From: Bacillales bacterium UBA7029
GTDB taxonomy: Bacteria; Bacillota_I; Bacilli_A; RFN20; CAG-826
DNA length: 64,000 nucleotides
Direction: 5' to 3'
Assembly: GCA_002494205.1 (NCBI GenBank)
Contig: DLBE01000043.1
Span: 15,893-79,892 of the forward strand
Shown here: in pieces, positions 33,750 to 49,056 of the stretch
How positions within the stretch are numbered: position 1 is the first letter of the stretch
How the letters are laid out: each line of letters opens with the position of its first letter
The notes under the pieces: generated by a model
Databases searched by the model: none
Told to the model about the DNA's origin: nothing
What the model saw: the letters and a program-made list of their open reading frames with translations, nothing else
Made by a program: the position numbers and the translations under genes

Positions 33750-33761
33750 TTAGAGAACAAA

Positions 33762-33792: not shown

Positions 33793-34229
33793 TTTAGCTT
33801 TTTATAGATTTCTAGGAAATCATTTGAGAGAGGATATTTTTCGATATCCTCTTCTTTTATAAAGAATATCTCACCCTCTTTAGATGATTTTAAGTTTCCC
33901 TTGAATGTCTTAGTTTTAAACAACATTGCAAGGTGTCTAACGTTATCTCCAAATTCGTTCCATTCAATGTAGCCTCGAGATTCCAGATCAGAAACTTCTA
34001 AACCAGTTTCTTCTTTCATTTCGCGAACAACGGCATCAACGATAAGTTCATCATCTTCAACGTGTCCGCCCGGGAAAGTAAGTCCTGGCCAATCTTTCTT
34101 CAAACGATTTTCAACCAAGAAAGAGCCATCATCTTTATAAACCATGCACATGATTGTAAGCTTGGTTTTCTTTTGCACGTGTGACTTATCTTTCTTAATA
34201 AAGTCTTTATCAATTCCGTTTTGAATCAT
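33789..34229 (-). CDS. NUDIX hydrolase
   Basis: Nudix box GGHVEDDELIVDAVVREMKEETGL. Confidence 0.85.
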   Translation of the reverse strand: MIQNGIDKDFIKKDKSHVQKKTKLTIMCMVYKDDGSFLVENRLKKDWPGLTFPGGHVEDDELIVDAVVREMKEETGLEVSDLESRGYIEWNEFGDNVRHLAMLFKTKTFKGNLKSSKEGEIFFIKEEDIEKYPLSNDFLEIYKKLK

Positions 34230-34230
34230 A

Positions 34231-34905
34231 TTAGAAATCTAATTTTTTAAGGTTTTTTGTGGATAATTTTATAACTAAAGCTTTAATAGCAATATAGATT
34301 CCGATTGCCGCTAAAAGTAGACCAAACTGTAAAATATAATTTGAGTTTGGAAGTCCAACAGTAAACATTTCTTCTGCGACAAAGAATGGAACCATGGTTA
34401 ATACACCACCAATAATTGCTGTTACAATAACTCCCACAAGCATATTAGCAATAATAGTTTTACCGGTTTTATAGAACCAAGGTAGATAAATCAAATCATA
34501 CACGGAGAATGAGATTAAATATGCTGCTAGTAAAGCAATTGGTTGATGCATATTTAATGAAACCTGCATAGATTCTTTGCTATTTGCATCAAAAATAAAT
34601 GTTGCAACAGACATAAAAGCAAAAACCAAGAGAACTTCAAATAATTGAATAACAGCTACTGTTATCACACGTGCTTTAATTACATCTTCTCTTTTGATAG
34701 GAAGCGTGCATGTGTAATATAAGTCGTTGGTGGTTGTTGTCTTATTCATTCCTATAAATAGGAAAGTATATGTTGCAGCCATATAAATTAATGGCACAAA
34801 AGAAGGGAATGCCGGAGAAAGAGCAGACATCGACATAAGTATGATGAGTAAATACGCTAGAGGTGGTACAGCTAGTTTGAACTCTTTATAAAGCAAATGT
34901 TTCAT
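34231..34905 (-). CDS. ABC-2-type transporter permease
   Basis: 224 aa; 6 TM; overlaps the upstream ATPase gene. Confidence 0.6.
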   Translation of the reverse strand: MKHLLYKEFKLAVPPLAYLLIILMSMSALSPAFPSFVPLIYMAATYTFLFIGMNKTTTTNDLYYTCTLPIKREDVIKARVITVAVIQLFEVLLVFAFMSVATFIFDANSKESMQVSLNMHQPIALLAAYLISFSVYDLIYLPWFYKTGKTIIANMLVGVIVTAIIGGVLTMVPFFVAEEMFTVGLPNSNYILQFGLLLAAIGIYIAIKALVIKLSTKNLKKLDF

Positions 34906-35758
34906 CTTCTAAATCATCCTTTCTTTCTTCATAAACCATAATTGTGTCTAAATCTGGTTTAGATTGTTTAATTTTTGCGGAAATTCCTTTAGATTTTTCA
35001 CTTGGAATAAGGGCTGTAAATTCTTTTCCGTCTTCCTTGTGAGAAACAATAAATTCTTTAACAGAATCGAATTCTGGCATAGGACCAGTAATGTACTTAT
35101 AGTCATTAATGAATTCTTCTTTTGTCTTTGAGGAGATAATTTTTCCTTTTTTAATATAGACAATGTGATCAGCACATTTATCTAAATCTGAAGTGATGTG
35201 TGTTGAGAAAAGAATACTTCTTTTTCCATCTTTAACAATCATTTTAAAAATATCTAAGATTTCATCTCTACTTACTGGATCAATTCCAGATGTAGGTTCA
35301 TCTAAAATTAGTAATTTCGCACCATGAGAAAGAGCTACAGCAAGGTTATATTTAACCTTCATACCGCTTGAAAGTTCTTTTATTTTCTTATTTTGATCTA
35401 ATGAGAATCTTTTACAAAGTTTTTCATAAGTATCTTGATTCCAGTTTGGGTAAAATTTACTTGTAACTTTAGTTAAGTTTCCAATTTTTGCATCTGGGTA
35501 GAACATTGTCTCGGCAAGTGTAAAGCCCATTTCTTGTCTGTTTTCGGTTTCATGTTCGTAAATATCTCTACCAAAAACTTTAATTTCGCCTTTGTTTAGA
35601 TGAATAAGTCCCATGATTCCTTTTAAAGTGGTTGTTTTACCTGCGCCATTACGACCAATAAATCCACAAATTGAGCCTTCTTCAATATCGAAGGAGACAT
35701 CATCAAGCTTAAATGAAGGATATTCTTTGGTTATATTTTTAACTTCTAAAATACTCAT
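34886..35758 (-). CDS. ABC transporter ATP-binding protein
   Basis: Walker A GRNGAGKTT; signature LSSGMK; Walker B LLILDEPTSG. Confidence 0.9.
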   Translation of the reverse strand: MSILEVKNITKEYPSFKLDDVSFDIEEGSICGFIGRNGAGKTTTLKGIMGLIHLNKGEIKVFGRDIYEHETENRQEMGFTLAETMFYPDAKIGNLTKVTSKFYPNWNQDTYEKLCKRFSLDQNKKIKELSSGMKVKYNLAVALSHGAKLLILDEPTSGIDPVSRDEILDIFKMIVKDGKRSILFSTHITSDLDKCADHIVYIKKGKIISSKTKEEFINDYKYITGPMPEFDSVKEFIVSHKEDGKEFTALIPSEKSKGISAKIKQSKPDLDTIMVYEERKDDLEDETFAL

Positions 35759-35961
35759 TTACCTATGACTCCTTTCTGCATAAGTTCATAAACTGCATCG
35801 CTTTTCATTAATGCGATGCCTTTTTCTTTGTCTCCTAAAAACATTAACGTATCGCCTGGAGAAATGTTAAACATTTCCCTAGCTTCTTTAGGAACAATAA
35901 TTTGACCTTTTTCGCCAACTTTTACGGAGACAATGAATCGATCTTTTGAGATATTTTTCAT
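35755..35961 (-). CDS. AbrB/MazE/SpoVT-family DNA-binding protein
   Basis: 68 aa; swapped-hairpin motif GQIIVPKEAREMFNISPGDTLMF. First gene of a three-gene operon with the ABC transporter. Confidence 0.7.
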   Translation of the reverse strand: MKNISKDRFIVSVKVGEKGQIIVPKEAREMFNISPGDTLMFLGDKEKGIALMKSDAVYELMQKGVIGK

Positions 35962-36016
35962 TTCCTACTTTTCCTACTTTTCATACTATATTATATTCTT
36001 ATTTAAACAAAATAAA

Positions 36017-36040
36017 AGGGGAAGATTAACTTCCCCAATA
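36017..36040 (-). terminator. intrinsic terminator after nagB
   Basis: ggggaag-attaa-cttcccc hairpin; A-run on plus gives a T-run on minus. Confidence 0.7.
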
Positions 36041-36054
36041 ATGTTTAAGTAACA

Positions 36055-36777
36055 TTACTTACAAAGTGAATATGCATCTTCATCAACATAGACTGTAACA
36101 TCTGGATGTTTTTGAAGAATGGAACAAGGCATTGATTCAACAACTGGTCCTTTAATTAAGCCATAGACTGCTTTTGCTTTGTTCTTACCAGTAGCGATAA
36201 GAACAATTTTTTTAGCATTCATAATGGACTTAAGTCCCATTGTAACTGCACGTGTAGGAACTTCCGAAATATCATTGAATAATCTTGAGTTATCTTTGAT
36301 AGTTTGCTCAGTAAGTTCGGTTTCGTGTGTTAATGAATCAAATGGTGTACCTGGTTCATTAAATGCGATGTGGCCATCACTGCCAATACCAAGAATTTGA
36401 ATATCAATTCCGCCTGCTTTTGCAATCATGTCATCATATTCGTTCATGAATTTCTTATAATCTCCAACACCGAGTAAGACGTTTGTGTTTTTCTTATCGA
36501 TATCGATGTGATTGAATAAATTTTCATTCATGAAGTAACGATATGATTGATTATGTGTTCCTTCAAGGCCAACATATTCATCAAGGTTAAATGTTTTACA
36601 TTTAGCAAATGAAACTCTACCTTCTTTATTAGCTTTTGCCAAATTGGCATAAACATCAAGAGGAGATGTTCCTGTTGCAAGTCCTAAGACTGCATTTGGT
36701 TTTTTATTAACAACTTCGATGAAGTCTTCTGCAATCATTTTTGAGATGACTTCGTTTGTATTTACTACAACTTTCAT
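36055..36777 (-). CDS. nagB: glucosamine-6-phosphate deaminase
   Basis: GLATGTSP, DEYVGL, GIGSDGHIAFNEPG motifs. Confidence 0.9.
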   Translation of the reverse strand: MKVVVNTNEVISKMIAEDFIEVVNKKPNAVLGLATGTSPLDVYANLAKANKEGRVSFAKCKTFNLDEYVGLEGTHNQSYRYFMNENLFNHIDIDKKNTNVLLGVGDYKKFMNEYDDMIAKAGGIDIQILGIGSDGHIAFNEPGTPFDSLTHETELTEQTIKDNSRLFNDISEVPTRAVTMGLKSIMNAKKIVLIATGKNKAKAVYGLIKGPVVESMPCSILQKHPDVTVYVDEDAYSLCK

Positions 36778-36778
36778 T

Positions 36779-37447
36779 TTATCTATTTTCCTTTTCTACA
36801 ATATTATTTTGTGATTTAACGATGCGGTTTTCTTTGAATATTCCTCTAAGCATACTTAATGGGTAAACTTGAGTGTTTTTACCGATAACGGTACCTGGAT
36901 TTAAGACTGAACCGCAACCAATGTCGGCGTGATCTCCTAAGAAACCTCCGATTTTTCTTAAACCAGTTTCGTGTTCTTCCTCACCATGAAGGACAATGTT
37001 TTTGCCATCACTTTTAAGGTTTGAAAGAATAGAACCAGCGCCCATATGAGCGTAGTTTCCGACAATGGAATCTCCAACATAATTGTAATGAGGAACTTGA
37101 GCGTGTTTCATAAGAACTGAGTTCTTTAACTCTGAGGAGTTACCAACGACACATTCTGGTCCAACAATGACTGAACCTCTAATATAAGCTCCTGGTCTAA
37201 TTTCGACATTATCGCAGATAATTGTTGGTCCGCATATTGTAGCAGTTTTGGCAATTTTTACATTCTTACCAACAAGAACCCCTTCGTCTAATTTAGTAAA
37301 ACCTTCGATTCCTTTGTCGATAAGGGAGACAATATAGGATTGGATCTCTTTTAAAACTAACCAAGGGCTTTCCTTGGAAAAAACTAGCGAATCCACGATG
37401 GAATTTCCGCTATGCTCGAATAAATCGATGCACTTAATCTTATCCAT
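36779..37447 (-). CDS. left-handed beta-helix (hexapeptide-repeat) acyltransferase-like protein
   Basis: Tandem hexapeptide repeats resembling the GlmU C-terminal acetyltransferase domain. SD AGGAGAGG. Confidence 0.55.
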   Translation of the reverse strand: MDKIKCIDLFEHSGNSIVDSLVFSKESPWLVLKEIQSYIVSLIDKGIEGFTKLDEGVLVGKNVKIAKTATICGPTIICDNVEIRPGAYIRGSVIVGPECVVGNSSELKNSVLMKHAQVPHYNYVGDSIVGNYAHMGAGSILSNLKSDGKNIVLHGEEEHETGLRKIGGFLGDHADIGCGSVLNPGTVIGKNTQVYPLSMLRGIFKENRIVKSQNNIVEKENR

Positions 37448-37524
37448 ATTCCTCTCCTAAAAATACTTTTTTATTATTGCACAGGCGATGGAACGTGGAA
37501 ATTATTTTTTTATTTTTTTTCAAA

Positions 37525-38349
37525 TTATTCCAGGTTTACTTTGTTAGAAATATAGTAATGGTATTGCTTCTCTTGACAATATTTTTTAATGTCTTCTTTT
37601 AAATTAGAATCTTTTGTGTATTCTAAGAAGAATACTTCTTTATTTTTCTTTTTCATTAAAGATGCAATTTCTTTGTAAAAATTTTGATCTTCTTTATTTT
37701 GTTTAGCGAATATATCATGCTCATAATTTGTAATTAAAGAGAAGACTTCTTCTTGGTGATAACCCCAAACATAATTAAAAACGTTATCTTTATTATCGTT
37801 TGAGTCGTCAAAGTATTCAGCGCCGCCATTAACCATAACTTTTAATCCAAGTTTATTTACTCTATTCATTACACTTTTAAGGGAGTTGGCAAAATCTTGA
37901 TAATTTAATTCTTCCTCTTTTGCAATAGAGTAAACATCGACATTATCAAGGTAAACTCCAAAAGCGCCTTTGTTTTTATACTTTTTTGCAAGCGAAACAA
38001 CTAAATTTTGCCAAGACTTGTTAGTAACATCGATCCATCTTTCATCTGGCCAATTGTCATAATCTTTGAACGTCAAATCTTTGAATTCTTCATAATAATC
38101 ACGATAATTTTCCAATGAACCGACATTTAAATAAGCTAAGCAATTAGTGCCATTTTTTGTTAATTTTTCAATATTTGATTTAGAAAATTCATCAATCTCT
38201 AACGCTACATATTTGTAATTAATAAAACTTTTAATGTTATTATTAGCTCTTCCTAAAAATGCTCCATAATCATTTGAAGTAAAATTAGTCTTTGAATTAC
38301 AACTTACTAAAGTAAATGCAGCGATTAATGAGATAGCAATTTTTTTCAT
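37525..38349 (-). CDS. lipoprotein of the GH114 family (endo-alpha-1,4-polygalactosaminidase / TM1410-like TIM barrel)
   Basis: MKKIAISLIAAFTLVSC lipobox. LAYLNVGSLENYRDYY...NWPDERWIDVTNKSWQ...GAFGVYLDNVDVY matches the GH114 consensus. ATG 38349 is internal to the track ORF. Confidence 0.6.
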   Translation of the reverse strand: MKKIAISLIAAFTLVSCNSKTNFTSNDYGAFLGRANNNIKSFINYKYVALEIDEFSKSNIEKLTKNGTNCLAYLNVGSLENYRDYYEEFKDLTFKDYDNWPDERWIDVTNKSWQNLVVSLAKKYKNKGAFGVYLDNVDVYSIAKEEELNYQDFANSLKSVMNRVNKLGLKVMVNGGAEYFDDSNDNKDNVFNYVWGYHQEEVFSLITNYEHDIFAKQNKEDQNFYKEIASLMKKKNKEVFFLEYTKDSNLKEDIKKYCQEKQYHYYISNKVNLE

Positions 38350-38418
38350 AGTAATAAAATTGTATCGCAAATGAAAGTTGGGATGAATTTTTAAAAATAA
38401 AAGAGTAACCTATTTAGT

Positions 38419-39174
38419 ATGAAGATACTTTTAGTAGATGATGAACAACTTCAATTAATCAGATTAGAAAAAGCTTGTAGGGCTGTTATACCTAGTGCTG
38501 ATTATTTTATTTTTACAAATCCGGTTAAAGCACTTGAAGAAAGTGAAAAAACCAAATTTGATGTTGCGTTTTTGGATATTGAAATGCCATCAATCAAAGG
38601 GATTCAACTTGCTAAAAAATTAAAGAAAAATAATCCTCTTTTAAGTGTTATTTTTGTAACGGCCTATACCGACTATGCTTTACAAGCTTTTAATATTCAT
38701 GCTTCTGGTTACATTACTAAGCCTGTTAACGAAGCGAAAATTAAAGAAGAAATTGAAAATCTTAAAAACATTTCTCCTTTACCGACTACTAAAAAATTAC
38801 AAGTTAAATGCTTCGGCAATTTTGAAGTATTTTGCAAAGGAGAACCAGTTAAATTCTCTTATAAAAAGTCTAAAGAAGTTTTCGCCTATCTTATAGATAG
38901 AGAAGGCTCTGCAATTAATATTAATGAGCTTAATGCAGTTTTGTGGGAGGAAGATCACCCTTCATATTTAAGAAACTTAATTGCAGATATTCAAAAAACT
39001 TTAAAATCACTTGATTGTGAGGATGTTTTCGTTAAACGCCATAACGAATGCTATATTGATGTTGATAAAATCGATTGCGATGCTTACGAATATAAAAAAG
39101 ATAATCCAAACGCTGTAAGACTTTATCGAGGCGAATACATGATGCAATATTCATGGCCAATATTTGATGAATAA
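38419..39174 (+). CDS. orphan response regulator: REC domain plus SARP/OmpR-like winged-helix output domain
   Basis: LLVDDE, phospho-acceptor D in FLDIEMP, T in VIFVTAY, K in GYITKP. C-terminal QVKCFGNFEVFCKGEPVKF...EVFAYL...LNAVLWEE is a winged helix of SARP type. Confidence 0.75.
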   Translation: MKILLVDDEQLQLIRLEKACRAVIPSADYFIFTNPVKALEESEKTKFDVAFLDIEMPSIKGIQLAKKLKKNNPLLSVIFVTAYTDYALQAFNIHASGYITKPVNEAKIKEEIENLKNISPLPTTKKLQVKCFGNFEVFCKGEPVKFSYKKSKEVFAYLIDREGSAININELNAVLWEEDHPSYLRNLIADIQKTLKSLDCEDVFVKRHNECYIDVDKIDCDAYEYKKDNPNAVRLYRGEYMMQYSWPIFDE

Positions 39175-39197
39175 AAATAGATTAGAATTTATTTAAA

Positions 39198-40397
39198 ATG
39201 TCTGAAATTGAAAGAACAAATAAGCTTATTTTGATGTTTAAGAATTATGAAGTTCTTTCTTTTTCATATGAATCAGAACCTAAACGAGTTGTTCATATAA
39301 TAGAAAAATTAGAGCATTTTGATAAAGCTCCCTATGGAGTTTTGCATCCACTTTATGACGAGGATACCGCACTTTTGAAATTTTTCAATTCGAGATCTAT
39401 CGCACCTCAAAGATATGATTACAATGAAATTCTTAAAGCTACTAATAGTAAGAATGGATTTGAACTATCTTTTAAAGGACACGGCTTATCTTTAACAAAC
39501 CATTATTGGTTTAAAAAAGAGGGTGAAAAATTAAAATACGAAGATATAAATTTCTTCACTAACAAGTGGGATGATTCCTTTGGAAGAGCGGTATTAAATA
39601 AAGATTATGAGAAACTAAAAAACTGTGATTTAAATGTTCCTGATATTGTTACTAATGGTTGGGCAGTTAAAGGATGGATTTGGGATAATGGTCCAAAGCT
39701 TTATAAATTCTCTAGAGATAAAATTAGCAGCGCAGAAGCTCTTGGTGAAGTTTTGGGTTCAAGACTTGCTAGAAGAATATTTCCAGATGATCAAGTTCTT
39801 CATTATGTACTTAAAAAAATTGGAAATAATTATGCTTCAGCAGCACCTGTACTTATTGGAATTGATGAAGAATTAGTTCCGCTTTCAAATTATTTTAAAT
39901 CTGATGTTTTTCACACTTATTTAAAAAGATTTAATAATAGAGAAGTCCAAAATGAATTTTTTAAATTAATAGAGCATTCTGGTATTCCAGGAATTAAAGA
40001 ATTTTTCATTAAAATTACATGTGTTAGACACTTATGTTTCATTTCCGATTTACATTTTGATAACATTTCTATTATTAAAAATAATAAAACAGGAAAACTA
40101 AGAATGTCTCCTTTATACGATTTAGCAGGAGCTTTCGGGACTTCTGAGTCAGGAAGAAAGTTTGTTTCTAACATTAATAAAGGAACATATCTAGTACTTT
40201 TCTATGTCTTTAATGAGCTAAATCCTGATTGGGATTATTCTTGGTATGACCCAAAACGACTTGACGGTTTCGAGAATGAAATAATCGAAATATTAACAAA
40301 ATCAGAATTTTATACACCCGAATTATTAGATAGAATAATAAATGTTTTCCGCTACCAAAAGGAAGCGTTAGATAAAATAGCAAAAAAGATTAAATAA
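39198..40397 (+). CDS. HipA-like Ser/Thr kinase family protein
   Basis: 399 aa; catalytic region ISDLHFDNISIIKNNKTGKLRMSPLYDLAGAFG matches the HipA_C DxHxxNxS...PxYD motif. 23-nt gap to the response-regulator gene. Confidence 0.55.
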   Translation: MSEIERTNKLILMFKNYEVLSFSYESEPKRVVHIIEKLEHFDKAPYGVLHPLYDEDTALLKFFNSRSIAPQRYDYNEILKATNSKNGFELSFKGHGLSLTNHYWFKKEGEKLKYEDINFFTNKWDDSFGRAVLNKDYEKLKNCDLNVPDIVTNGWAVKGWIWDNGPKLYKFSRDKISSAEALGEVLGSRLARRIFPDDQVLHYVLKKIGNNYASAAPVLIGIDEELVPLSNYFKSDVFHTYLKRFNNREVQNEFFKLIEHSGIPGIKEFFIKITCVRHLCFISDLHFDNISIIKNNKTGKLRMSPLYDLAGAFGTSESGRKFVSNINKGTYLVLFYVFNELNPDWDYSWYDPKRLDGFENEIIEILTKSEFYTPELLDRIINVFRYQKEALDKIAKKIK

Positions 40398-40398
40398 C

Positions 40399-40432
40399 TG
40401 TGACACATTTGTGGCAGATGCTTTGCTAGAAT
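40399..40432 (+). promoter_or_regulatory. heptamer direct repeats TGTGACA / TGTGGCA (11-bp register) abutting a TAGAAT -10 box upstream of the precursor gene
   Basis: Repeats at 40399-40405 and 40410-40416; TAGAAT at 40427-40432; ATG at 40455. Confidence 0.45.
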
Positions 40433-40454
40433 ACATTCAGGATTGGAATTGATT

Positions 40455-40658
40455 ATGAGGAAAGAATTGTTAAAAGGTTTAACTGAGGAACAAATAATTA
40501 AAGTGCAACAATGTAGCGATGTTCGTGATTTAATGCAACTTGCTAAAGATGAAGGTGTTGAATTAAATGATGAGCAACTAAAAGCTGTATCAGGTGGCGC
40601 TTGTTCTAGTGAAACAGATAAAGAAGATTCAGCGCATAATAGAAAAATTGAAAGTTAA
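40455..40658 (+). CDS. RiPP precursor peptide, Nif11-like leader with GG cleavage motif
   Basis: MRKELLKGLTEEQIIKVQQCSDVRDLMQLAKDEGVELNDEQLKAVSGG | ACSSETDKEDSAHNRKIES. The leader resembles Nif11 leaders (SEEQLKAF...IAKEAGF.IT.EEL...VAGG). 19-aa acidic core with one Cys. ATG 40455 is internal to the track ORF, which starts at TTG 40443. Confidence 0.75.
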   Translation: MRKELLKGLTEEQIIKVQQCSDVRDLMQLAKDEGVELNDEQLKAVSGGACSSETDKEDSAHNRKIES

Positions 40659-40660
40659 TA

Positions 40661-42055
40661 ATGTTTTTCCGTTTAAAAGATAATGTTGCATTAAGAAAAT
40701 GGAGATATGTTGATCGTGCGATTTATAAAAAAGGCATAGATCAAGCTCTTGGGGTTTCAAAGGAAGAATTTGAAATCCTTTTGCTATGCGATGGAGAACA
40801 CGATTTAGAAAATAACAAAATAATTCAAGAATTAAAAAATAGAAACCTCATTGAAGAATGTAACAAAGGCGATAAATTAAATGAATGGTCCAAGTTAAAG
40901 GAGTATGATAACTACTATTTTCCACGTATGAATCTAATGATTACTGGAAAATGTAATCTTAATTGTTTGCATTGCTTTAATGCAAAAGATAACGCTCCAT
41001 TAAATTCCGAACTCTCTTTTGAAGAAATTTTAACTATCTTAGATCAAGCAAAAGATATTGGCATTCATTGTTTTACATTAACTGGTGGTGAGCCATTAGT
41101 TCATCGTAAATTTTTAGATATTGTAAAAGCTATTTATGAAAGAAATATGTTCATTTTTGAGCTTAACACTAATGGCTTACTAATTAACCAAAAGATGCTC
41201 GATTTCTTTAAAGAAATAGGTTGCTATCCTTTAATAAAAATTTCTTATGATGGAATTGGTTATCATAACTGGATTAGACAACATCCTAAAGCTGAAGAAC
41301 TTACTTTAAAAGCTATTGAATTATGCATCAAAAATGGCTTCAGAGTGAAAGCCCAAGTTCAAGTTAATCGTAAGAATTTGGATTCGATGTTTGAAACCGC
41401 AAAACTACTTGATAAGATGGGCGTTGATGAGATGAGAATTATAAGAACAACTGAAGCTCCTCGATGGGAAAAGAACGCACCTCAATCATCTTTAACAATT
41501 GAAGAATATTACGAAAATATGCTGGATTTTGCGGCAAAATTCATGAAATCTGGGATGAAAATGACTGTTGATGTTTGGCAGTTTTTACGAATTTATCCAA
41601 GGCACAAACTTTACTCACTTGTACCTATTTCTTGTAATAAAGATGAATTTAATATTCGTATTCCAATGTGTAAAGGTAACCGCGGAATGATTGCTGTTTC
41701 TTCAAAAGGAGAAGTTGTTCCATGCTTACAAATGTCTGGTTACTTTTTGGAAAAAGGTATCAGCTTAGGAAATTTGTTTAAAACGCCTTTAAAAGAATTA
41801 GTGAAAAATAGTCCCTATCTAGATTTAGCAATGGCGCCATTATTTAAACAAATTATTGAGAATGATAAATGTGGTAATTGTAAATACTACAAAGCCTGTA
41901 CCGGTGGTTGCCCTGCTTTGGGCTTATTATATTCTAAAGATATTAATTTCTACCATGAAGATATTACTAAATGCATTTTCTTTGAAAATGGTTGGTATGA
42001 AAAAGTTACAGAAACTTTAAAAGATTTTCATTTACAAAATCCTTTAAATATTTAG
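40661..42055 (+). CDS. radical SAM/SPASM peptide maturase with N-terminal RRE (PqqD-like) domain
   Basis: CNLNCLHC (CxxxCxxC); N-terminal ~90-aa PqqD-like RRE; C-terminal SPASM with CNKDEFNIRIPMCKGNRGM...VVPC...CGNCKYYKACTGGCPA. 3-nt gap to the precursor gene. Confidence 0.85.
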   Translation: MFFRLKDNVALRKWRYVDRAIYKKGIDQALGVSKEEFEILLLCDGEHDLENNKIIQELKNRNLIEECNKGDKLNEWSKLKEYDNYYFPRMNLMITGKCNLNCLHCFNAKDNAPLNSELSFEEILTILDQAKDIGIHCFTLTGGEPLVHRKFLDIVKAIYERNMFIFELNTNGLLINQKMLDFFKEIGCYPLIKISYDGIGYHNWIRQHPKAEELTLKAIELCIKNGFRVKAQVQVNRKNLDSMFETAKLLDKMGVDEMRIIRTTEAPRWEKNAPQSSLTIEEYYENMLDFAAKFMKSGMKMTVDVWQFLRIYPRHKLYSLVPISCNKDEFNIRIPMCKGNRGMIAVSSKGEVVPCLQMSGYFLEKGISLGNLFKTPLKELVKNSPYLDLAMAPLFKQIIENDKCGNCKYYKACTGGCPALGLLYSKDINFYHEDITKCIFFENGWYEKVTETLKDFHLQNPLNI

Positions 42056-42072
42056 AATTTTCTTTCTTTGAC

Positions 42073-42105
42073 AATGCCAGCAAATTGAGTTTGGCATTTT
42101 TTATT
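42073..42105 (+). terminator. intrinsic terminator after the rSAM gene
   Basis: aatgcca-gcaaattgagtt-tggcatt hairpin followed by ttttatt. Confidence 0.6.
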
Positions 42106-42143
42106 TAGATTGTGTTTTACGCAATCTAAATTAATGATATAAT
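42106..42143 (+). promoter_or_regulatory. perfect inverted repeat TAGATTG-N9-CAATCTA followed by extended -10 TGATATAAT, 7 nt before ATG 42151 (leaderless)
   Basis: IR at 42106-42112 / 42122-42128; TG at 42135-42136; TATAAT at 42138-42143. Confidence 0.5.
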
Positions 42144-42150
42144 CATTATT

Positions 42151-42531
42151 ATGAAAAAGAATAAAGTTAGTATCTCTAATCCAGAAGAACTAGAAAAAAA
42201 TCTGCAATATTCTTCTCCAGTTACATGGATTGCTTTAGGAGTTGTCTTTTCTCTTATTGTGGGCCTTTTTGTATGGTCTTGCGTTTTCAAAATTAAAGAC
42301 AAAATTATAGGCAAAGCGAAAATTGTCAGTTCTGAAGTTACTCTTGTGGTTGACGCTAATTCTATTTCAAAATTAAAGGTTGGCCAAAAAGTTTATATTA
42401 ATAATTTAGAAGGCGAAATCTTAAAAATTGTTGAGAAAAAGCCTATTATTTCTCATTTTGCATTGGCTGATGGAGAGTACGAATACACCATTATTAATGA
42501 AATTAAACCAATAGAATACTTGATCAAATAA
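42151..42531 (+). CDS. small membrane-anchored protein, possible minimal HlyD/MFP-like export accessory
   Basis: 126 aa; one N-terminal TM; beta-rich C-terminus KAKIVSSEVTLVVDANSISKLKVGQKVYINNLEGEILKIV resembles an MFP barrel-sandwich hairpin. Confidence 0.35.
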   Translation: MKKNKVSISNPEELEKNLQYSSPVTWIALGVVFSLIVGLFVWSCVFKIKDKIIGKAKIVSSEVTLVVDANSISKLKVGQKVYINNLEGEILKIVEKKPIISHFALADGEYEYTIINEIKPIEYLIK

Positions 42532-42533
42532 TT

Positions 42534-44708
42534 ATGGAAAAGGTAAAGAAACCAAAGACTAAAGGCAAAGGAGTTGCAAATACTCCGTTAATCATGCAAT
42601 TAGAAGCTCTAGAATGTGGAGCTGCTTCTTTAACAATGGTTATGGCTTACTATGGAAAGTGGGTACCTCTTGAACAAGTTAGAGTTGATTGTGGTGTTTC
42701 TAGAAACGGAAGTAACGCTAAGAACATTCTTAGAGCTGCTCAAAAATATGGGTTTAAAACATCAGGTTATGCTTACAATATTCAAAAATTAAAAGAAAGA
42801 GGCAAATTTCCAGCGATCATTCACTGGGGTGGAGGCCACTTTGTTGTTTTAAATGGTTTTAGGGGTAATAAAGCAATTATTAATGACCCAGCTAAAGGAC
42901 TTGTTAAAGTCGATTTGAAGACTTTTGACAAAATATTTACCGGAATTTATCTTGAACTTGTTCCAGATGAAAATTTTGTTCCTAGCGGAAAAAGAAAATC
43001 AATTTTTTCATTTGCTAAGAAACGTCTTAAAGGCGCTTTGCCATTAATTATTTTCTTTTCAATTACGACAATTATTTTCTATGTTTTTAGCATTATTTCG
43101 CCTGCTATGAGCCAAGTTTTTGTCGATAAACTTTTAGGTGGGCAAAACCCGTCATGGCTGTTGCCATTTATTCTAGTATTTGCAAGTGTAGCATTGCTAC
43201 AAGTCGTCGTAACAGTAATTCAGAGCATATCGCAATATAAGATTCGAGGCAAACTAGATTTAATTGGTTCAACAACTTATATGTGGAGAATTTTAAGACT
43301 CCCTATTGAATTCTTCTCGCAAAGAATGGTTGGAGATTTGCAAGGACGTCAATCTGAAAACGCATCAATTGCAGAAACATTGGTTAATGTTTTCGCTCCT
43401 TTATTATTTAACACAATTATGATTGTGGTTTATCTGTTTGTAATGATTAATAAGAGCTGGATTTTATCTCTTGTGGGAGTAATAACAGTCCTTATAAATA
43501 TCTTTGTGTCGACAAGAATTTCTAAAGTCAGGGTCAATATTTCCCGTGTTCAAGCTAGAGATAACGCAAGACTTTCTGGCATGACTTCAAAAGGCATTGA
43601 AATGGTCGAAACAATTAAATCAAATGGTGCTGAGCAAGCTTATTTTGAATCTTGGTCCGATGTTCAAAACGATGTTGTTAAAGGAAAGCTTAGAATGTCG
43701 AAAATAAATGCATCACTAGGTTTAATTCCTTCATTTGCAGCAATGCTTGCAAATTACTCAATATTAATTCTTGGTGTTTTCTTCACTATTAAGGGTGAAT
43801 TCACAATTGGTTCAATTTTAGCTTTCCAAGGTTTACTTGGTTCATTTATGCAACCTGTTAATACTCTTATTTCAAGTGGTCAGACATTACAAGAAATGAG
43901 AACCATGATGGAAAGAGTGGATGATGTTTTGGAATATCCTTTAGATGAAAATGTTATTCGTGAAATTAAGACTGACAATGTTTCAAAAATTAAAGGTAAC
44001 CTCATTTTGAAAGATATAACTTTTGGTTATTCTAGACTAGACGAACCAATTTTAAAGAATTTTAATCTGGAAATAAAACAAGGACAAAAGGTTGCAATTG
44101 TTGGTTCAACAGGAAGCGGAAAATCAACGCTATCAAAATTAATTTCAGGTTTATATTCACCTTGGTCAGGAGAAATTATTTTTAATGGCAAGAAGATTAC
44201 TGAAATTGATCACGAAATTTTTACTTCATCAATTGCAGTTGTTGATCAAGATATAACAATGTATGAAGACACAATTTTAAATAATATTAAAATGTGGGAT
44301 GAATCTATTGAAGATTACGAAGTAATAATGGCATGTAATGATGCTCAAATACATAAACAAATCATGGCAAGAGAAGGTGGTTATAATGCTCCAGTTTTGG
44401 AAGGTGGTAAAAACTTCTCTGGTGGTGAGAAACAAAGACTTGAGATTGCTCGTTCTTTAGCTTCTGATCCAAGCATCATCATTTTAGATGAAGCTACAAG
44501 TGCGTTAGACGCCAAAACAGAATCTGAAGTTGTTAAAGCAATTAAAGCTCGTGGCATCACAACAATTGTTATTGCTCATAGATTATCTACCATTAGGGAT
44601 GCTGATTTGATTGTTGTTCTTAATAAAGGCGTAATTGTGGAGCAAGGAACTCACGAAGAATTAATGAAAAATAAAAGTTCATATTACGAACTTGTTACAA
44701 ATGATTAG
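42534..44708 (+). CDS. peptidase-containing ABC transporter (C39 peptidase plus 6 TM plus NBD)
   Basis: C39 Cys in QLEALECGAASL and His in GGGHFVVL; Walker A GSTGSGKST; LSGGEKQR; ILDEATSALD. Confidence 0.9.
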   Translation: MEKVKKPKTKGKGVANTPLIMQLEALECGAASLTMVMAYYGKWVPLEQVRVDCGVSRNGSNAKNILRAAQKYGFKTSGYAYNIQKLKERGKFPAIIHWGGGHFVVLNGFRGNKAIINDPAKGLVKVDLKTFDKIFTGIYLELVPDENFVPSGKRKSIFSFAKKRLKGALPLIIFFSITTIIFYVFSIISPAMSQVFVDKLLGGQNPSWLLPFILVFASVALLQVVVTVIQSISQYKIRGKLDLIGSTTYMWRILRLPIEFFSQRMVGDLQGRQSENASIAETLVNVFAPLLFNTIMIVVYLFVMINKSWILSLVGVITVLINIFVSTRISKVRVNISRVQARDNARLSGMTSKGIEMVETIKSNGAEQAYFESWSDVQNDVVKGKLRMSKINASLGLIPSFAAMLANYSILILGVFFTIKGEFTIGSILAFQGLLGSFMQPVNTLISSGQTLQEMRTMMERVDDVLEYPLDENVIREIKTDNVSKIKGNLILKDITFGYSRLDEPILKNFNLEIKQGQKVAIVGSTGSGKSTLSKLISGLYSPWSGEIIFNGKKITEIDHEIFTSSIAVVDQDITMYEDTILNNIKMWDESIEDYEVIMACNDAQIHKQIMAREGGYNAPVLEGGKNFSGGEKQRLEIARSLASDPSIIILDEATSALDAKTESEVVKAIKARGITTIVIAHRLSTIRDADLIVVLNKGVIVEQGTHEELMKNKSSYYELVTND

Positions 44709-44720
44709 AAAGGAGTAAAC

Positions 44721-46901
44721 ATGGGTTGGTTTGAAGAGCAAGTAAAACAAAGAAAAGAACTCGATGCAAAAACATTCGAAGAATCTTTCATGTCGCTTGC
44801 TGGATTAAAAGTCGATAATAAAGAAAGTTTGACTGACGAACAAATAAAAGATAACTTTGTTATTAGTCAAATACTTTCATATTTCAACCATCAACCTATT
44901 GATATTCCAAAGTCTATTGATAATTTTGAAGATAAATTAAATTATGTTATTTCACAAACGGATTTCGTTTATAGAAAGATCAATTTAGATAAATCTTATT
45001 CCGACAATAACAAGTTTCCAATCCTTATTTTTGTCCCATTTAATAACTCTCCAGTTTTACTTTTCCCTAAAGGAAAGGATAAATACTATTATATAAATTA
45101 CGCGACAGGAAAAAGAGCTACTATTGATTCTTATTTAGTGAACGGACTAGAACTTGAAGCATATACTTTCTATCGTCCACTTCCAAAATCAAAAATTTCA
45201 TTTAAAGGCTACGCTTCTTACTTAAAGAAATCGGTTAAACCATTGGATTTAATTTTGCTTATTTTGTTCACAATTGCCGCCTCTGGTGTCGGACTTTTAA
45301 TCCCTTTTCTCACTAAGAGATTGACAGGTGAAGTTGTTAGCAAAGGTGAAATCCCATTCTTTATTTTAATTTCAAGTTTTGTTGTAACCGCTGCAACAGG
45401 TTTACTTTTAGTAAAAGCGGTTCAGTCTTTTATCAATATTAAAGTTTCAACTAAGATTGAGAAGTCTATTCAAGAAGCCACAATGATGAGAGTTTTATCT
45501 CTCCCAGCTTCTTTCTTTAAGAAACATAATACCGGTGAACTTGGCTTAAGATTTAGCAATGTAGTCTTTTTAGCAAGATTAATCATTGCTGGAATGTTTA
45601 CAACGCTAACTTCGGTTATCATGTCTTTTGCTTATGTATTCCAATTAATTGGTTTTGCCCCATCCTTAATTTGGCCTGTTGTACTAATTTTATTAGTGAA
45701 CACAAGTTTTACAATTTTAATTTCTTTTATTCAGAAAGAATATGCTAAAAAACAACTTGAACTAAGCGCTAAAGAAGCTGGTGTTACTTATGAAATGATT
45801 AATGGCATCCAAAAGATTAGACTTTCCGGAAGCGAAAAACGTATTTTTGCAAAATGGGCTAGTGCTTATTCTAAGAGTGCAAAACTTAAATATAATCCTC
45901 CTATGATTTTAAAACTTAGTGGAGCATTGTCCTTATTAATTTCATTATTAGGTACTCTACTTATTTATTTTGTGGCCGCCAAAAACAACATTGATGCAAG
46001 TAGTTACATGGCATTTATGTCTAGCTATGGTGTTTTATCTGCTGCTTTTGCATCTTTATCTCAAGTTGCTAGTACATTATTTACTATTCAACCAATTTAT
46101 GAAATGGCTCGCCCAATTTTGGAAAGCGAACCTGAATCTAATGAAGGAAAAATTGAACTTAAACACATTACTGGAAATATCACAATTAAAGATGTCTCCT
46201 TTAGATACACTGAAACTGGTCCACTTATCTTAAATAAGTTTAATTTAGACATTAAAGAAGGCGAATATCTTGCAATAGTTGGTCAAACAGGTTGTGGTAA
46301 ATCTACATTGGTGAGACTTTTACTTGGTTTTGAAAAACCTATAAATGGTGAAGTATTATATGATAATATAAACATTAATGATGTTAATTTAACTTCATTA
46401 AGAAAGAATATTGGTACTGTTATGCAAAATGGAACTTTATTCCATGCTGATATTCTATCTAACATCATTATTTCTAACCCGAGTCTAAAAAACGAAGATG
46501 CTTGGGAAGCAGCGGAGATTGCTAATATTGCCGAAGATATTAGAGAAATGCCAATGGGAATGAGAACTGTTATATCGGAAGGTCAAGGTGGTATCTCTGG
46601 TGGTCAAAAACAAAGGATTATGATTGCTAGAGCAATCGTCCATAAACCTAAAATTCTCATCTTTGATGAGGCAACATCCGCTTTAGATAATAAAACCCAA
46701 AAATCTATTTCAGATTCAATCAGTAAACTCAATTGTACACGTATTGTAATCGCGCATAGACTATCGACAATTAAAAATGCTGATCGAATTATTATGCTTG
46801 AGGGTGGCAAAATTATAGAGCAAGGAGATTATAAAACTTTGATTGCTAAAAATGGCAAGTTTGCTGAACTTGTTGAAAGACAAAGACTTGATACTAATTA
46901 G
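44721..46901 (+). CDS. partner ABC transporter with a degenerate, Cys-less C39-like N-terminal domain
   Basis: 726 aa; the N-terminal ~150 aa lack a catalytic Cys; 6 TM; Walker A GQTGCGKST; ISGGQKQR; IFDEATSALD. SD AAAGGAG. Confidence 0.85.
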   Translation: MGWFEEQVKQRKELDAKTFEESFMSLAGLKVDNKESLTDEQIKDNFVISQILSYFNHQPIDIPKSIDNFEDKLNYVISQTDFVYRKINLDKSYSDNNKFPILIFVPFNNSPVLLFPKGKDKYYYINYATGKRATIDSYLVNGLELEAYTFYRPLPKSKISFKGYASYLKKSVKPLDLILLILFTIAASGVGLLIPFLTKRLTGEVVSKGEIPFFILISSFVVTAATGLLLVKAVQSFINIKVSTKIEKSIQEATMMRVLSLPASFFKKHNTGELGLRFSNVVFLARLIIAGMFTTLTSVIMSFAYVFQLIGFAPSLIWPVVLILLVNTSFTILISFIQKEYAKKQLELSAKEAGVTYEMINGIQKIRLSGSEKRIFAKWASAYSKSAKLKYNPPMILKLSGALSLLISLLGTLLIYFVAAKNNIDASSYMAFMSSYGVLSAAFASLSQVASTLFTIQPIYEMARPILESEPESNEGKIELKHITGNITIKDVSFRYTETGPLILNKFNLDIKEGEYLAIVGQTGCGKSTLVRLLLGFEKPINGEVLYDNININDVNLTSLRKNIGTVMQNGTLFHADILSNIIISNPSLKNEDAWEAAEIANIAEDIREMPMGMRTVISEGQGGISGGQKQRIMIARAIVHKPKILIFDEATSALDNKTQKSISDSISKLNCTRIVIAHRLSTIKNADRIIMLEGGKIIEQGDYKTLIAKNGKFAELVERQRLDTN

Positions 46902-46915
46902 TGGAGGCTAATAAT

Positions 46916-47203
46916 ATGAAACATAGTTTAGAAAAAGATGTACTTACACTCTTCTTAGAAGGAGAACTTAATTCTTTTAATTCTGAAGATGTTGAGAAAG
47001 AAATTGAAGAAATACTTAAAACAAATTCCTTTAAATCAATTGTTTTAGATTTAAAAGATTTGACTTATATTTCATCTGCTGGTCTTAGAATAATTATTAG
47101 ACTTAAACAACAATGTGATAATACTTCAATTATTCACACTCCAAAGGATGTTTTAAATATTTTTAAAATGGTAGGATTTACTAGTATTTTAAAAATTGAT
47201 TAA
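46916..47203 (+). CDS. STAS-domain protein (anti-sigma-factor antagonist, SpoIIAA/RsbV-like)
   Basis: LDLKDLTYISSAGLRIIIRL contains the conserved phosphorylatable Ser region. SD GTGGAGG 8 nt upstream of ATG 46916. Confidence 0.75.
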   Translation: MKHSLEKDVLTLFLEGELNSFNSEDVEKEIEEILKTNSFKSIVLDLKDLTYISSAGLRIIIRLKQQCDNTSIIHTPKDVLNIFKMVGFTSILKID

Positions 47204-47205
47204 TT

Positions 47206-49056
47206 ATGGCTTTAAAAGAAAGACAATTTGTTGACGCTTATCATGATAATGAAGCAGATGCCAATAGGCATATGTCTTTTGTTAATGCAGCTGCTGGTAT
47301 TTTGGCTTTAATTATTTGGGCTTTGTATTTAGCAAGAGTATTTACAATTCCTGATCATTTTTTCCCAGTTGTCATGATTTTATTCCCTACAGCAGCAGTA
47401 TTGTTATTTGTGCCACTTTTTCTTGTGAAAACTGATCTTGTAAGAAGACCTGCTTATAAATACTTTATAATATTTTCACTTTTGGCTGTTGTTATTGCAT
47501 TAAATATATCAATTCCAAAACATTCTCTTTTATTTTGGCCCTTTATTATTTTAATCGCGAATCACTATTACAATCCTACGCTAGGGCGTGTAGTTTATGT
47601 TGTGACTATTGTTGCAATGCTTATTTGCATGTATTTAGGCATGTTTTTTGGTGAATTTGATGAAAACTTATTTGGTGGTGGTGTCATTTTAAAAGATGGT
47701 ACAATCGGAACAGTTGAAACATTTACTGAACGAAAAGAGCTTCTAGATCAACTTGCTAAAAACGGAAATAACCGTTACATTAAAGCTCTTATTTTCTATT
47801 ATTTCCCTAGAGCGATGATTGTTACATTGTTCTTTATGGTAAGTAATCTTTTAAACAAAAGAACATATAAACTGCTTGATGCTGAAATTAGAGCTCACGA
47901 CGAACAAGAAAAAGCAAAAACAGAGCTAGAAGTTGCTAAAGGCATCCAACTAAATACACTTCCAGGTGAATTTGCGTCTAATGACGGTGTAGAAATCTTA
48001 GGTGAACTAAGAGCCGCAAAAGAAGTTGGTGGAGATCTTTATGATTATGTTGATATTGATAAAGACCACGTCGCTATTTTAATTGGAGATGTTTCTGGTA
48101 AAGGCGTTCCTGCTGCTATGTTTATGATGAAGACAATCACTTCATTTAGAGACTTTGCAACTAAAGGAAAAAGCCCATCTGAAATTCTTAAAGCAGTTAA
48201 TAAATCAATTTTTAAAGGAAATACTGACTTCATGTTTGTAACTTGTTTCCTTGCTATTTTAGACAAAATAACAGGCAAACTTGTTTATGCAAATGCAGGT
48301 CATAATCCACCTATTATTGGTTCAAATAAAAATTATAAATTTTTAAATAGTAAACCTGGTTTAATTTTAGGCTGTTTTGAGAATTCAAATGTTGTTGATG
48401 AAGAAATTATTTTAAAACCAGGTGAGACTATTACTTTATATACTGACGGAATTACTGAAGCAAAAAACGGAGAAGGAAAACTATTTGGTGAAAGTAGATT
48501 CCTTAATGTTTTTAATAAGAAAAACTACACTTGCACAATTGAGCTCCATAGTCAGATTAAAGATGAAATTGCAGAATTTGTTAAAGATGCACCTCAAAGT
48601 GACGATATAACAATTTTAACATTAAGATATAAAGGTGATAATTTACAATACGATCAAAAACATTTTGAAGCCAAAAAAGAAAATACCGTCGATATTCTTG
48701 GCTTCATTAAAGATTTCTCTGCAAGACATAATTTTTCAGGCGAATTTACAAATAAACTTTTGATAGTAGGTGACGAACTTGCCTCAAATATTATCAACCA
48801 TGGTTATAAAAATAACGGTGGACCTATCTTTATTCGTTTACTTTTTAATGAAGATAAAAAAGAATTTGTATTAACAATTATCGATAGTGCTGTTGAATTT
48901 AATCAACTAGAGGTTGAGGACACCCCAATTTCTGGAGAAGCTAAAAAACAAAAAATTGGCGGACTTGGTTTACTAATTGTTAAAAACATTATGGATGAAT
49001 ATTCTTATCAAAGAGTGAACAATAAGAACATCTTGGTATTAAAGAAAAACCTTTAA
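47206..49056 (+). CDS. membrane sensor fused to a PP2C (SpoIIE/RsbU-type) phosphatase and a GHKL anti-sigma-factor-type Ser kinase
   Basis: 616 aa; ~5 N-terminal TM; PP2C motifs GDVSGKGVPAAMFMM ... TDGITEA ... DDITIL; C-terminal HATPase_c of RsbW type ELASNIINHGY ... GGLGLLIVKNIMDE. Confidence 0.75.
   Translation: MALKERQFVDAYHDNEADANRHMSFVNAAAGILALIIWALYLARVFTIPDHFFPVVMILFPTAAVLLFVPLFLVKTDLVRRPAYKYFIIFSLLAVVIALNISIPKHSLLFWPFIILIANHYYNPTLGRVVYVVTIVAMLICMYLGMFFGEFDENLFGGGVILKDGTIGTVETFTERKELLDQLAKNGNNRYIKALIFYYFPRAMIVTLFFMVSNLLNKRTYKLLDAEIRAHDEQEKAKTELEVAKGIQLNTLPGEFASNDGVEILGELRAAKEVGGDLYDYVDIDKDHVAILIGDVSGKGVPAAMFMMKTITSFRDFATKGKSPSEILKAVNKSIFKGNTDFMFVTCFLAILDKITGKLVYANAGHNPPIIGSNKNYKFLNSKPGLILGCFENSNVVDEEIILKPGETITLYTDGITEAKNGEGKLFGESRFLNVFNKKNYTCTIELHSQIKDEIAEFVKDAPQSDDITILTLRYKGDNLQYDQKHFEAKKENTVDILGFIKDFSARHNFSGEFTNKLLIVGDELASNIINHGYKNNGGPIFIRLLFNEDKKEFVLTIIDSAVEFNQLEVEDTPISGEAKKQKIGGLGLLIVKNIMDEYSYQRVNNKNILVLKKNL

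Follow-up and report, generated by a model that had tools for sequence, protein, structure and literature searches.

A diverged HipA-fold kinase that travels with Nif11-type double-glycine precursors, and its possible role in peptide production

A kinase gene within a peptide cassette

A 64,000-nucleotide stretch of AT-rich DNA (~32% G+C) from Bacillales bacterium UBA7029, referred to below as the window, carries on its forward strand, at 39198..40397, a gene for a diverged Ser/Thr kinase of predicted HipA fold, which is the subject of this analysis. From its ATG start the gene encodes 399 residues with the motifs DLHFDNIS (residues 284-291) and SPLYD (residues 304-308), as an earlier, sequence-only reading of this DNA had described. 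A response regulator of predicted OmpR/PhoB type (38419..39174; 251 residues with REC and winged helix; Pfam Response_reg E 4e-22) ends 23 bp upstream of the kinase ATG, and on its side away from the kinase it adjoins a divergent gene for a GH114 hydrolase. The kinase stop is followed after 57 bp by the start of a Nif11-like double-glycine precursor (40455..40658; 67 residues, with an ATG at 40455 that agrees with the starts of its orthologues), and then, on the same strand, by a radical SAM/SPASM peptide maturase (40661..42055; 464 residues; Pfam Radical_SAM and SPASM), for which no NCBIfam equivalog cut-off was reached. The export genes come next: a short HlyD-like membrane protein (42151..42531; 126 residues; NHLM_micro_HlyD E 3.5e-6, aligned only to the first 64 of 421 profile positions), a C39 peptidase/permease/ATPase exporter of the NHLP/Nif11 type (42534..44708; Pfam Peptidase_C39; TIGR03796 839.7 bits, below the cut-off of 853.3 bits) and a second ATP-binding cassette (ABC) permease/ATPase subunit (44721..46901; TIGR03797 647 bits, below the cut-off of 709 bits). 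The earlier claims of a full response regulator 23 bp upstream, and of a locus of the type that makes peptides built by the ribosome and modified after translation (RiPPs), both hold on this inventory.

Sequence profiles reach the kinase only weakly. Pfam HipA_C (PF07804) matched residues 267-312 alone, with E 1.5e-3 and 18.7 bits against a gathering score of 30.5 bits, a threshold under which its relatives likewise fall; an NCBIfam profile search of the kinase returned no matches, and phmmer against PDB found nothing meaningful. When a profile of 37 homologues was run against PDB, the sole match was CtkA, at a marginal E of 0.046; the alignment covers both the catalytic loop and the P-x-x-D motif. 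An AlphaFold2 model (predicted local distance difference test, pLDDT, 92; predicted template-modelling score, pTM, 0.91) was then compared with PDB by Foldseek, and the best 25 matches were all HipA, from E. coli or Shewanella, or CtkA (4pu5 at E 4e-9, 3fbr at a TM score of 0.58; all with probability 1.00). These matches had TM scores of 0.53-0.58 over ~460 aligned columns, with PI3K, PI4K and CotH kinases matching much more weakly. Judged by the model, fold and active site place the protein in the HipA superfamily despite its sub-threshold sequence score, which bears out the HipA-like assignment of the sequence-only reading and the structural comparison it had called for.

The active site is well preserved. 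In the alignment of 37 sequences D284, H286, N289, D308, G154, W155, K158 and K170 are invariant; G154, W155 and K158 fall in a P-loop-like stretch (T152-x-G154-W155-x-x-K158), K170 is the ATP-site lysine and D308 the Mg-binding aspartate. The D-x-H-x-x-N and P-x-x-D motifs are kept in essentially all of the 120 homologues listed, at pairwise identities of only ~50-57%, and two further invariant motifs, HGLSL..HYW and NKWDD, are specific to the family and precede the P-loop and the catalytic loop, within the N-terminal half. Because the fold is unambiguous and the catalytic motifs are kept despite low identity, we consider the protein a diverged HipA-fold Ser/Thr kinase that is very probably catalytically active, as predicted from sequence and model.

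HipA of the hipBA pairs (E. coli and Shewanella oneidensis; 3fbr, 4pu5) has the same two-lobed fold over its full length, with the same D-x-H-x-x-N loop and downstream aspartate, but is only 11-15% identical to the window kinase, which in contrast has no HipB/HipS partner, lies outside any toxin-antitoxin or mobile-element context, and is embedded in, and co-regulated with, a peptide regulon. CtkA of Helicobacter pylori (JHP940; 3akj), described as a proinflammatory kinase of that pathogen, is the only solved structure that a sequence profile reached; it is without the N-terminal domain (275-296 resolved residues).

The kinase has at least 227 close homologues, very few of which carry a Pfam label. 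This close subfamily is reduced to one representative, at 642 bits, in a library clustered at 50% identity, whereas the next-closest relatives score 276 bits or less (P0122 and P0123, 272-276), followed by a broad family of 1158 proteins at E<1e-10. HipA-family kinases are known as toxins that phosphorylate aminoacyl-tRNA synthetases and drive persistence. Among the more distant relatives found here (~150-175 bits), many have an N-terminal HTH_17 domain fused to a diverged HipA-like core, and in one there is a ToxN domain; because of these fusions, the ancestry of the broader family looks, from sequence, like that of toxin- or defence-type Hip kinases. The HTH-bearing relatives resemble the monocistronic Hip kinases of the HipH/YjjJ type, with an N-terminal helix-turn-helix (HTH) and no separate antitoxin, whereas the subfamily of the window kinase has no HTH. 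In a collection with one genome per species the close subfamily occupies 38 loci, its hosts being almost all metagenome-assembled genomes from rumen or gut labelled Erysipelotrichaceae, Bacilli or Bacillales, together with three Lachnospiraceae. Homologues from Treponema and Oscillospiraceae, at 21-31% identity, stand alone or in mobile-element contexts and were set aside as uninformative on a link to peptides.

The kinase neighbourhood in related loci

To compare neighbourhoods, the window proteins were mapped by tblastn onto fetched loci, of which 42 distinct ones were counted (numbered with L below). Precursors were called by tblastn and regular expressions, which may miss diverged peptides. 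A Nif11-type double-glycine precursor lay within 10 kb of the kinase in 29/30 loci with sequence on both sides, and within 1.5 kb in 22/30. Of the 27 loci with 8 kb or more of downstream sequence, 19 have the radical-SAM enzyme and 19 the ABC exporter; the regulator was directly upstream of the kinase in 14 of 34 loci with enough upstream sequence. Had the homologues never co-occurred with RiPP genes, the adjacency in the window could have been dismissed as incidental, a possibility that the sequence-only reading had raised and that these counts contradict.

The usual full cassette comprises the kinase (in some loci preceded by a histidine kinase and the response regulator), the precursor, the radical-SAM enzyme, the HlyD-like stub, both ABC genes, the STAS gene (with or without a further STAS/APH gene) and the PP2C/HATPase_c_2 gene. 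Departures from this order separate the parts. Export genes directly follow the kinase, without a radical-SAM enzyme, in L012, L018 and L022; kinase and precursors occur without maturase or exporter within 10 kb in L020, L021, L035, L041 and L043; and L061 has the STAS, PP2C, radical-SAM, HlyD-like and ABC genes with neither kinase nor precursor. In the split loci, then, the kinase remains with the precursor genes. It travels with these genes and not with the regulator, the maturase or the exporter, and to no other gene is it linked as strongly as to the precursors.

The association extends beyond the close subfamily. P0122, a kinase relative in the G+C-rich locus L051, is divergent beside a Pfam-positive Nif11 peptide (...AISGG|WGTCPENDYCSS...), P0123 (L052) is followed by Nif11-type double-glycine precursors, and no radical-SAM or ABC genes were found at either locus. 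Because these two relatives adjoin Nif11-type peptides without the remainder of the cassette, the link between kinase and precursor predates the cassette. A third distant relative, at L053, adjoins genes for a nucleotidyltransferase (NTP_transf_2) and a Fic protein. All related loci come from metagenome assemblies, mostly of one lineage, and shared descent inflates the synteny counts, so that independent weight comes mostly from the rearranged or split loci and from the two distant relatives. On this evidence the kinase belongs, as a dedicated component, to a regulon with Nif11-type double-glycine precursors at its centre, and is independent of regulator, histidine kinase and radical-SAM enzyme alike.

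Such tight linkage to leader-bearing peptides would also suit a protein that uses the kinase fold without catalysis, as a leader-binding chaperone, a scaffold or an immunity protein for the peptides, and the invariant HGLSL..HYW and NKWDD motifs, located ahead of the P-loop and the catalytic loop, could be read in the same way. We consider this improbable, given that the D-x-H-x-x-N motif, the Mg-binding aspartate and the P-loop and ATP-site lysines are conserved in essentially all of the listed homologues at ~50% identity.

The gene directly upstream of the kinase varies between loci, being the response regulator, a precursor, a transmembrane PP2C phosphatase or an unrelated gene. The stand-alone transmembrane PP2C, which has no HATPase_c_2 domain, lies 8-15 bp upstream of the kinase in L018 (755-2200), L022 (4-1287) and L037 (8197-9660), all loci without the regulator, and a divergent PP2C gene adjoins the kinase in L028 and L038. 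The close upstream arrangement suggests that the transmembrane PP2C and the HipA-like protein form a kinase/phosphatase pair.

The regulator and its predicted regulon

The regulator retains the receiver residues D7, D8, D53, T81 and K101, and its C-terminal ~125 residues are almost invariant (16-36 orthologues). Its structural model, of moderate confidence (pLDDT 75), aligned over ~220-230 columns with full-length DrrB, PhoP, VanR, PrrA and KdpE (E down to 2e-11), and the NCBIfam PhoB, RppA and VanR models align to it up to about residue 193; the protein ends ~25 residues past the winged helix, in a tail of low model confidence. By its canonical receiver and modelled fold it is an OmpR/PhoB-type response regulator. 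The sequence-only reading had called its DNA-binding domain SARP-like, and one source labels an orthologue 'SAPR family', a name of that source's own; the OmpR-type winged helix agrees with that description, but a Pfam search of the C-terminal 127 residues returned no matches, including no BTAD domain, so that the term was overstated.

In most relatives that have the regulator, a multi-pass histidine kinase of the LytS/YesM type (PF06580 plus HATPase_c) is encoded directly upstream of it (L002, L017, L019, L025, L027, L030, L032, L039, L044 and L058). LytS/YesM-type kinases usually pair with LytTR or AraC regulators. The earlier observation that the locus has no histidine kinase was upheld: tblastn with the relatives' LytS-type kinase found no match across the 64-kb window, and Pfam identified no histidine kinase among the genes between 37.5 and 49 kb. 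The LytS-type gene is also missing at L016, L040 and L042. At L055, the same chromosomal site (flanked, as in the window at 31667-51573, by proS and NUDIX genes on one side and Ham1 and Na/Ca exchanger genes on the other) holds only a histidine kinase and regulator pair (7735-9756), with no kinase-peptide cassette. Since most relatives with the regulator have a LytS-type partner and L055 keeps the pair, the missing histidine kinase appears, from these comparisons, to be a loss specific to the source genome and not a design feature. Likewise, because L055 has the pair without the cassette, the gene content indicates that the two-component pair and the kinase-peptide cassette are separable modules, and the region looks like a hotspot for their gain and loss. 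The L040 regulator (9196-9948) has in addition lost its phospho-acceptor, with FLGVSAS in place of FLDIEMP around D53, and may be a phosphorylation-independent variant.

These findings bear on the proposal, made in the sequence-only reading, that the HipA-like protein is the missing phospho-donor for an orphan regulator. The window does combine the lack of a histidine kinase with a regulator that retains D53, and regulator and kinase are probably co-transcribed, with a 23-bp gap that holds no promoter motif. Against this, the kinase is present irrespective of histidine kinase and regulator, Hip kinases are Ser/Thr kinases and not phospho-donors to aspartate, and the loci without a histidine kinase (L016, L040, L042) display no kinase-specific change, the L040 regulator even lacking D53. 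With a LytS-type partner in most relatives, the regulator hardly qualifies as an orphan in need of a donor, and we regard this role, the weakest of the three suggested, as scarcely credible for the kinase.

We also judge it very improbable that the regulator takes the place of HipB, binding DNA to control its own operon and holding the kinase inactive as an antitoxin. In gene order and in its 23-bp spacing the pair is reminiscent of hipB-hipA, the DNA-binding domain of the regulator is unusually invariant, and relatives in the broader family carry fused HTH domains. Yet the regulator is not directly upstream in 20/34 loci and, where present, usually follows its own histidine kinase; a promoter motif separates it from the kinase in L019, L031, L039, L044 and L058; and L055 has the two-component pair without a HipA-like kinase. 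No XRE-type or HipS-like gene accompanies the kinase, as the earlier reading had implied, so that the defining feature of a hipBA toxin-antitoxin system, a conserved adjacent HipB/HipS partner, is absent; nor is the regulator supported as the kinase's specific partner. The ten gene contexts in the Hip kinase survey of Gerdes et al. (2021, PMC8262856) include neither peptide clusters nor response regulators.

Comparison of the intergenic regions upstream of precursors of the window's type yielded the motif TGTGRCAC-N3-TGTGRCA, two 7-bp direct repeats with an 11-bp period, followed after 5-7 bp in most related loci by an extended -10 element (TGnTAnnAT). The window has a single exact copy (0.11 expected from shuffles), the tandem repeat TGTGACA-CATT-TGTGGCA at 40399..40416 on the forward strand, between the kinase stop and the precursor start, where it takes the place of a -35 element as a putative regulator site; the extended -10 read from the sequence, TGcTAGAAT (40424..40432, forward strand), starts 7 bp past the proximal repeat. 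A second window site at 12364, with one mismatch, lies inside an open reading frame without a -10 and is probably due to chance, and a sigma-54 reading (TGGCA-N6-TTGC) was rejected, its second element being unconserved while both heptamers and TGnTAnnAT are conserved. A generic scan of the window for promoters and terminators was uninformative in such AT-rich DNA, with 61 promoter-like sites against 57 expected.

Allowing slight degeneracy, the motif matched 81 times in 754 kb of loci, counting both strands, against 6-7 by chance, a rough estimate from uniform base frequencies and not from shuffles, with a pattern that had been derived from the very loci in which it was counted. Almost without exception the matches share the strand of the gene that follows and stand 40-60 bp upstream of its start codon (for example L007 738/2450/2876/3287/9940, L041 713-11204 and L061 3468). 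They precede precursors of both core types described below, the kinase itself in many or most loci, the HlyD/ABC operon in L012 and L019, and the STAS operon in L061; a search upstream of the histidine kinase and regulator genes in related loci found none. Taken together with a further target noted below, a Lipase_3-like gene, the motif's distribution marks what appears from sequence to be one regulon of precursors, kinase, export operon and STAS operon.

Tandem repeats in place of a -35 element ahead of a -10 are the architecture of OmpR/PhoB- and SARP-type activators, and OmpR/PhoB-type regulators bind repeats of 11-bp period, as with the pho boxes of PhoB and the NisRK-type regulators of lantibiotics. 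This architecture fits the invariant winged helix of the regulator, which by analogy probably binds the TGTGRCA repeats and is likely an activator of the peptide regulon. The likeness to the PhoB and NisRK systems thus covers the REC and winged-helix domains and the repeats that replace the -35, while the partner differs, being a LytS/YesM-type kinase coupled with an OmpR/PhoB-type regulator and missing in the source genome. Some loci with the motif have no adjacent regulator gene; in these the regulator may lie at another place in the genome. In the window the kinase has no motif copy of its own, and it is probably transcribed together with the regulator, upstream of the inducible precursor promoter, as the spacing and motif positions suggest.

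In three loci (L001, L007 and L041) the motif also stands before a Lipase_3-like gene: a protein of ~665 residues and an adjoining lipoprotein-like protein of ~370 residues follow it (L001 2199-5342, L007 4103-7205, L041 4763-7856). Only the L001 copy of the larger protein has a Pfam Lipase_3 match, those of L007 and L041 being paired with it by size and position only. Both proteins may be secreted products under the same regulator.

Precursor peptides and the role of the kinase

The window precursor, MRKELLKGLTEEQ...LKAVSGG|ACSSETDKEDSAHNRKIES, has a leader of the double-glycine type with the core after the GG, and both the GG motif and a C39 exporter are encoded in the window. Matches to the Nif11 leader profiles (PF07862 / TIGR03798) grade from E 0.1 only for the window peptide, through 22.1 bits against a cut-off of 23.8 for a homologous leader of the second core type, to 33.6 bits for the L051 peptide, which passes Pfam Nif11. 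Two core types, A and B, occur among the related loci behind a leader common to both (55-70% identical). Type A, which includes the window peptide, always adjoins the kinase or the maturase and has a hydrophilic core of 9-26 residues with the pattern [A/G]0-1-C-[S/D/T]-(S/T-rich)...[K/R][K/R]-[I/F/L]-[E/D]-x. In related loci, type B is encoded by as many as eight genes in an array (L007 1-3937, L041 629-4622, L009 428-2109, L043 4091-8464), each gene with a motif copy before it; its core of ~40-55 residues has a four-cysteine zinc-ribbon pattern, with weak matches to zinc-ribbon profiles, and carries an extra N-terminal cysteine. The window has no type B precursors. To our knowledge, exported zinc-ribbon peptides are unusual. 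Both types place a cysteine within the first four core residues, usually followed by Ser or Thr, which several type B cores lack. Most type A cores (the window core lies at 40599-40655) end in a basic-basic-hydrophobic-acidic-x sequence such as RKIES, KKIEQ, RKFES, RRIEA or KRKIDS, which the maturase, the kinase or a receptor might recognise.

We tentatively propose, as quite possible though short of probable, that the kinase is a leader-guided peptide Ser/Thr kinase that acts near the conserved N-terminal cysteine of the core. With the long conserved leader as its recognition site, it would phosphorylate Ser/Thr residues of the core, and the most plausible of these lie in the S/T-rich stretch right behind the cysteine (GG|x0-3-C-[S/T]...). 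The radical-SAM step and C39/ABC export would follow or run in parallel. The regulator itself is the ordinary OmpR/PhoB-type transcription factor of the cluster, normally driven by a LytS-type histidine kinase, which in the window merely shares a transcript with the kinase and is neither its HipB-like antitoxin nor its substrate. What favours a peptide substrate is that one kinase serves many precursors with a common leader (a single kinase gene is present even where a locus has as many as 9 precursors, of two core types), that this leader is conserved where the kinase is the only conserved non-precursor gene, and that the kinase segregates with precursors. There is a precedent in Burkholderia, where a Ser/Thr kinase accompanies NHLP-class precursors (Haft et al. 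2010, PMC2887384). Among the three roles that the sequence-only reading had offered, action on the peptide thus fits the neighbourhood data best, and a toxin-like growth regulator remains a live rival.

In that rival, which we hold unlikely on balance, the kinase is induced along with the peptides but phosphorylates some protein of the cell, as a regulatory or toxin-like enzyme. Its target might be the STAS protein, the exporter or, as with HipA and HipT, an aminoacyl-tRNA synthetase, so that peptide production or sensing would be coupled to growth arrest, or export gated, with the membrane PP2C as antagonist. Several observations that weigh against a peptide substrate count in its favour. All characterised Hip kinases phosphorylate proteins, aminoacyl-tRNA synthetases in the cases reviewed (PMC8262856). 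The broader family, with its HTH_17 and ToxN fusions and its Fic/NTP_transf_2 neighbourhood, points to toxin or defence ancestry, and classic partners of protein phosphorylation are constant companions of the kinase: a STAS protein in every full cassette and a PP2C phosphatase, which in five loci adjoins the kinase as described above. Moreover, conservation exceeds 90% at T152, which, judged via the P0123 alignment, lies in the P-loop region where the HipA_C profile begins; in HipA the regulatory autophosphorylation site is the P-loop Ser150.

Other points weaken the peptide substrate from its own side. Ser or Thr after the core cysteine is common and not universal, being absent from several zinc-ribbon cores; the locus lacks a lyase or any other enzyme to take up a phospho-intermediate; shared descent accounts for part of the synteny, almost all the loci being from a single bacterial lineage; and the maturase has an N-terminal extension of ~90 residues before its radical-SAM domain that could itself bind the leader, so that leader conservation does not by itself require the kinase.

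The distribution of the genes nonetheless speaks against a cellular protein as the substrate. Split loci keep the kinase with precursors, and STAS, PP2C and ABC genes with the maturase (L041 against L061), and L051 and L052 have Nif11 peptides with no STAS, PP2C or ABC gene nearby, both of which weaken that rival. In addition, the locus already has a HATPase_c_2 kinase for the STAS protein, and no conserved antitoxin candidate is present.

The comparison with RiPP tailoring kinases is instructive. Known examples are domains of class III/IV lanthipeptide synthetases, APH-like kinases of the class V LxmK type and HPr-kinase-like enzymes of lasso peptides. As with these, the window kinase is encoded with precursors whose cores are rich in Ser/Thr, and a leader logic of one enzyme for many precursors would match. 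Their folds, in contrast, are unrelated, and they act with a lyase and a cyclase or leave a terminal phosphoserine, whereas no lyase or cyclase is encoded in the peptide locus of the window and the radical-SAM enzyme is the maturase. The lanthipeptide analogy drawn in the sequence-only reading, in which phosphorylation precedes dehydration, accordingly finds no support.

The enzyme type is known; the conserved partnership of kinase and peptide is previously undescribed. Full-text literature searches returned no paper that links HipA-like kinases to radical-SAM, Nif11 or precursor-peptide clusters, and nothing relevant on HipA with a response regulator or in Erysipelotrichaceae, nor on Nif11/radical-SAM systems with a kinase, STAS or phosphorylation. 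The pattern suggests a kinase of toxin-antitoxin origin that has been taken over for peptide production or signalling. A HipA-type subfamily fixed beside genes for exported peptides would widen the biology of the family, giving either a new fold among peptide-tailoring enzymes or a toxin-type kinase wired into a peptide-signalling regulon. That it represents a new class of leader-guided kinase acting on Nif11-type precursors, within a quorum-sensing-like regulon of rumen Bacilli, is a possibility that we advance with reserve; if true, this would be the HipA family's first enzyme to act on a ribosomal peptide, yielding phosphopeptides or priming the core for radical-SAM chemistry. With its sensor kinase, OmpR-type regulator, operator motif, two classes of exported peptide, radical-SAM maturase, exporter and STAS/PP2C module, the regulon is compact and testable, stems from abundant uncultured rumen bacteria and could be reconstituted heterologously.

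The remaining genes of the cassette follow a known plan with additions. It resembles the NHLP/Nif11 cassette (Haft, Basu and Mitchell 2010, PMC2887384; TIGR03794/03796/03797) in its GG leader, C39 exporter, second ABC subunit and HlyD-like protein. It differs in that its exporter proteins score under the equivalog cut-offs, its HlyD-like protein has only ~130 residues, a short form conserved in all related cassettes, and a radical-SAM enzyme (75-87% identical between orthologues, and 75-100% identical among the best 120 matches) replaces LanM or a cyclodehydratase. It also adds, besides the HipA-fold kinase, a STAS-domain protein (46901..47203, forward strand; 100 residues; Pfam STAS E 1.7e-13) and a membrane PP2C (SpoIIE) phosphatase fused to a HATPase_c_2 Ser kinase domain of the anti-sigma type (47206..49056, forward strand; Pfam SpoIIE E 5.5e-52, HATPase_c_2 E 2.3e-19). 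The STAS start overlaps the stop of the second ABC gene by 1 nt, an order kept in every full cassette, and the PP2C/HATPase_c_2 protein is conserved in most related loci. Together these two genes (46901-49056) form a module of the partner-switching type within the peptide cassette, with no sigma factor nearby, which might be a gate for export or signalling. In L002 (17792-18946) a STAS domain fused to a kinase fold of the APH/EcKL type is encoded between the STAS and PP2C genes; the fusion recurs in L009, L012, L013, L016, L030, L058 and L061 and is absent from the window.

Elsewhere in the window, at 9844-11037 and 12196-13539, two genes encode enzymes resembling those of sugar-nucleotide or polysaccharide biosynthesis, each apparently with an N-terminal XRE-type HTH-like segment; the segments, spotted by eye in the translations, contain LTQEEAAKVVGTSLRTYVTYE and LTQVEAAKKLGVSLRTYQRYE.

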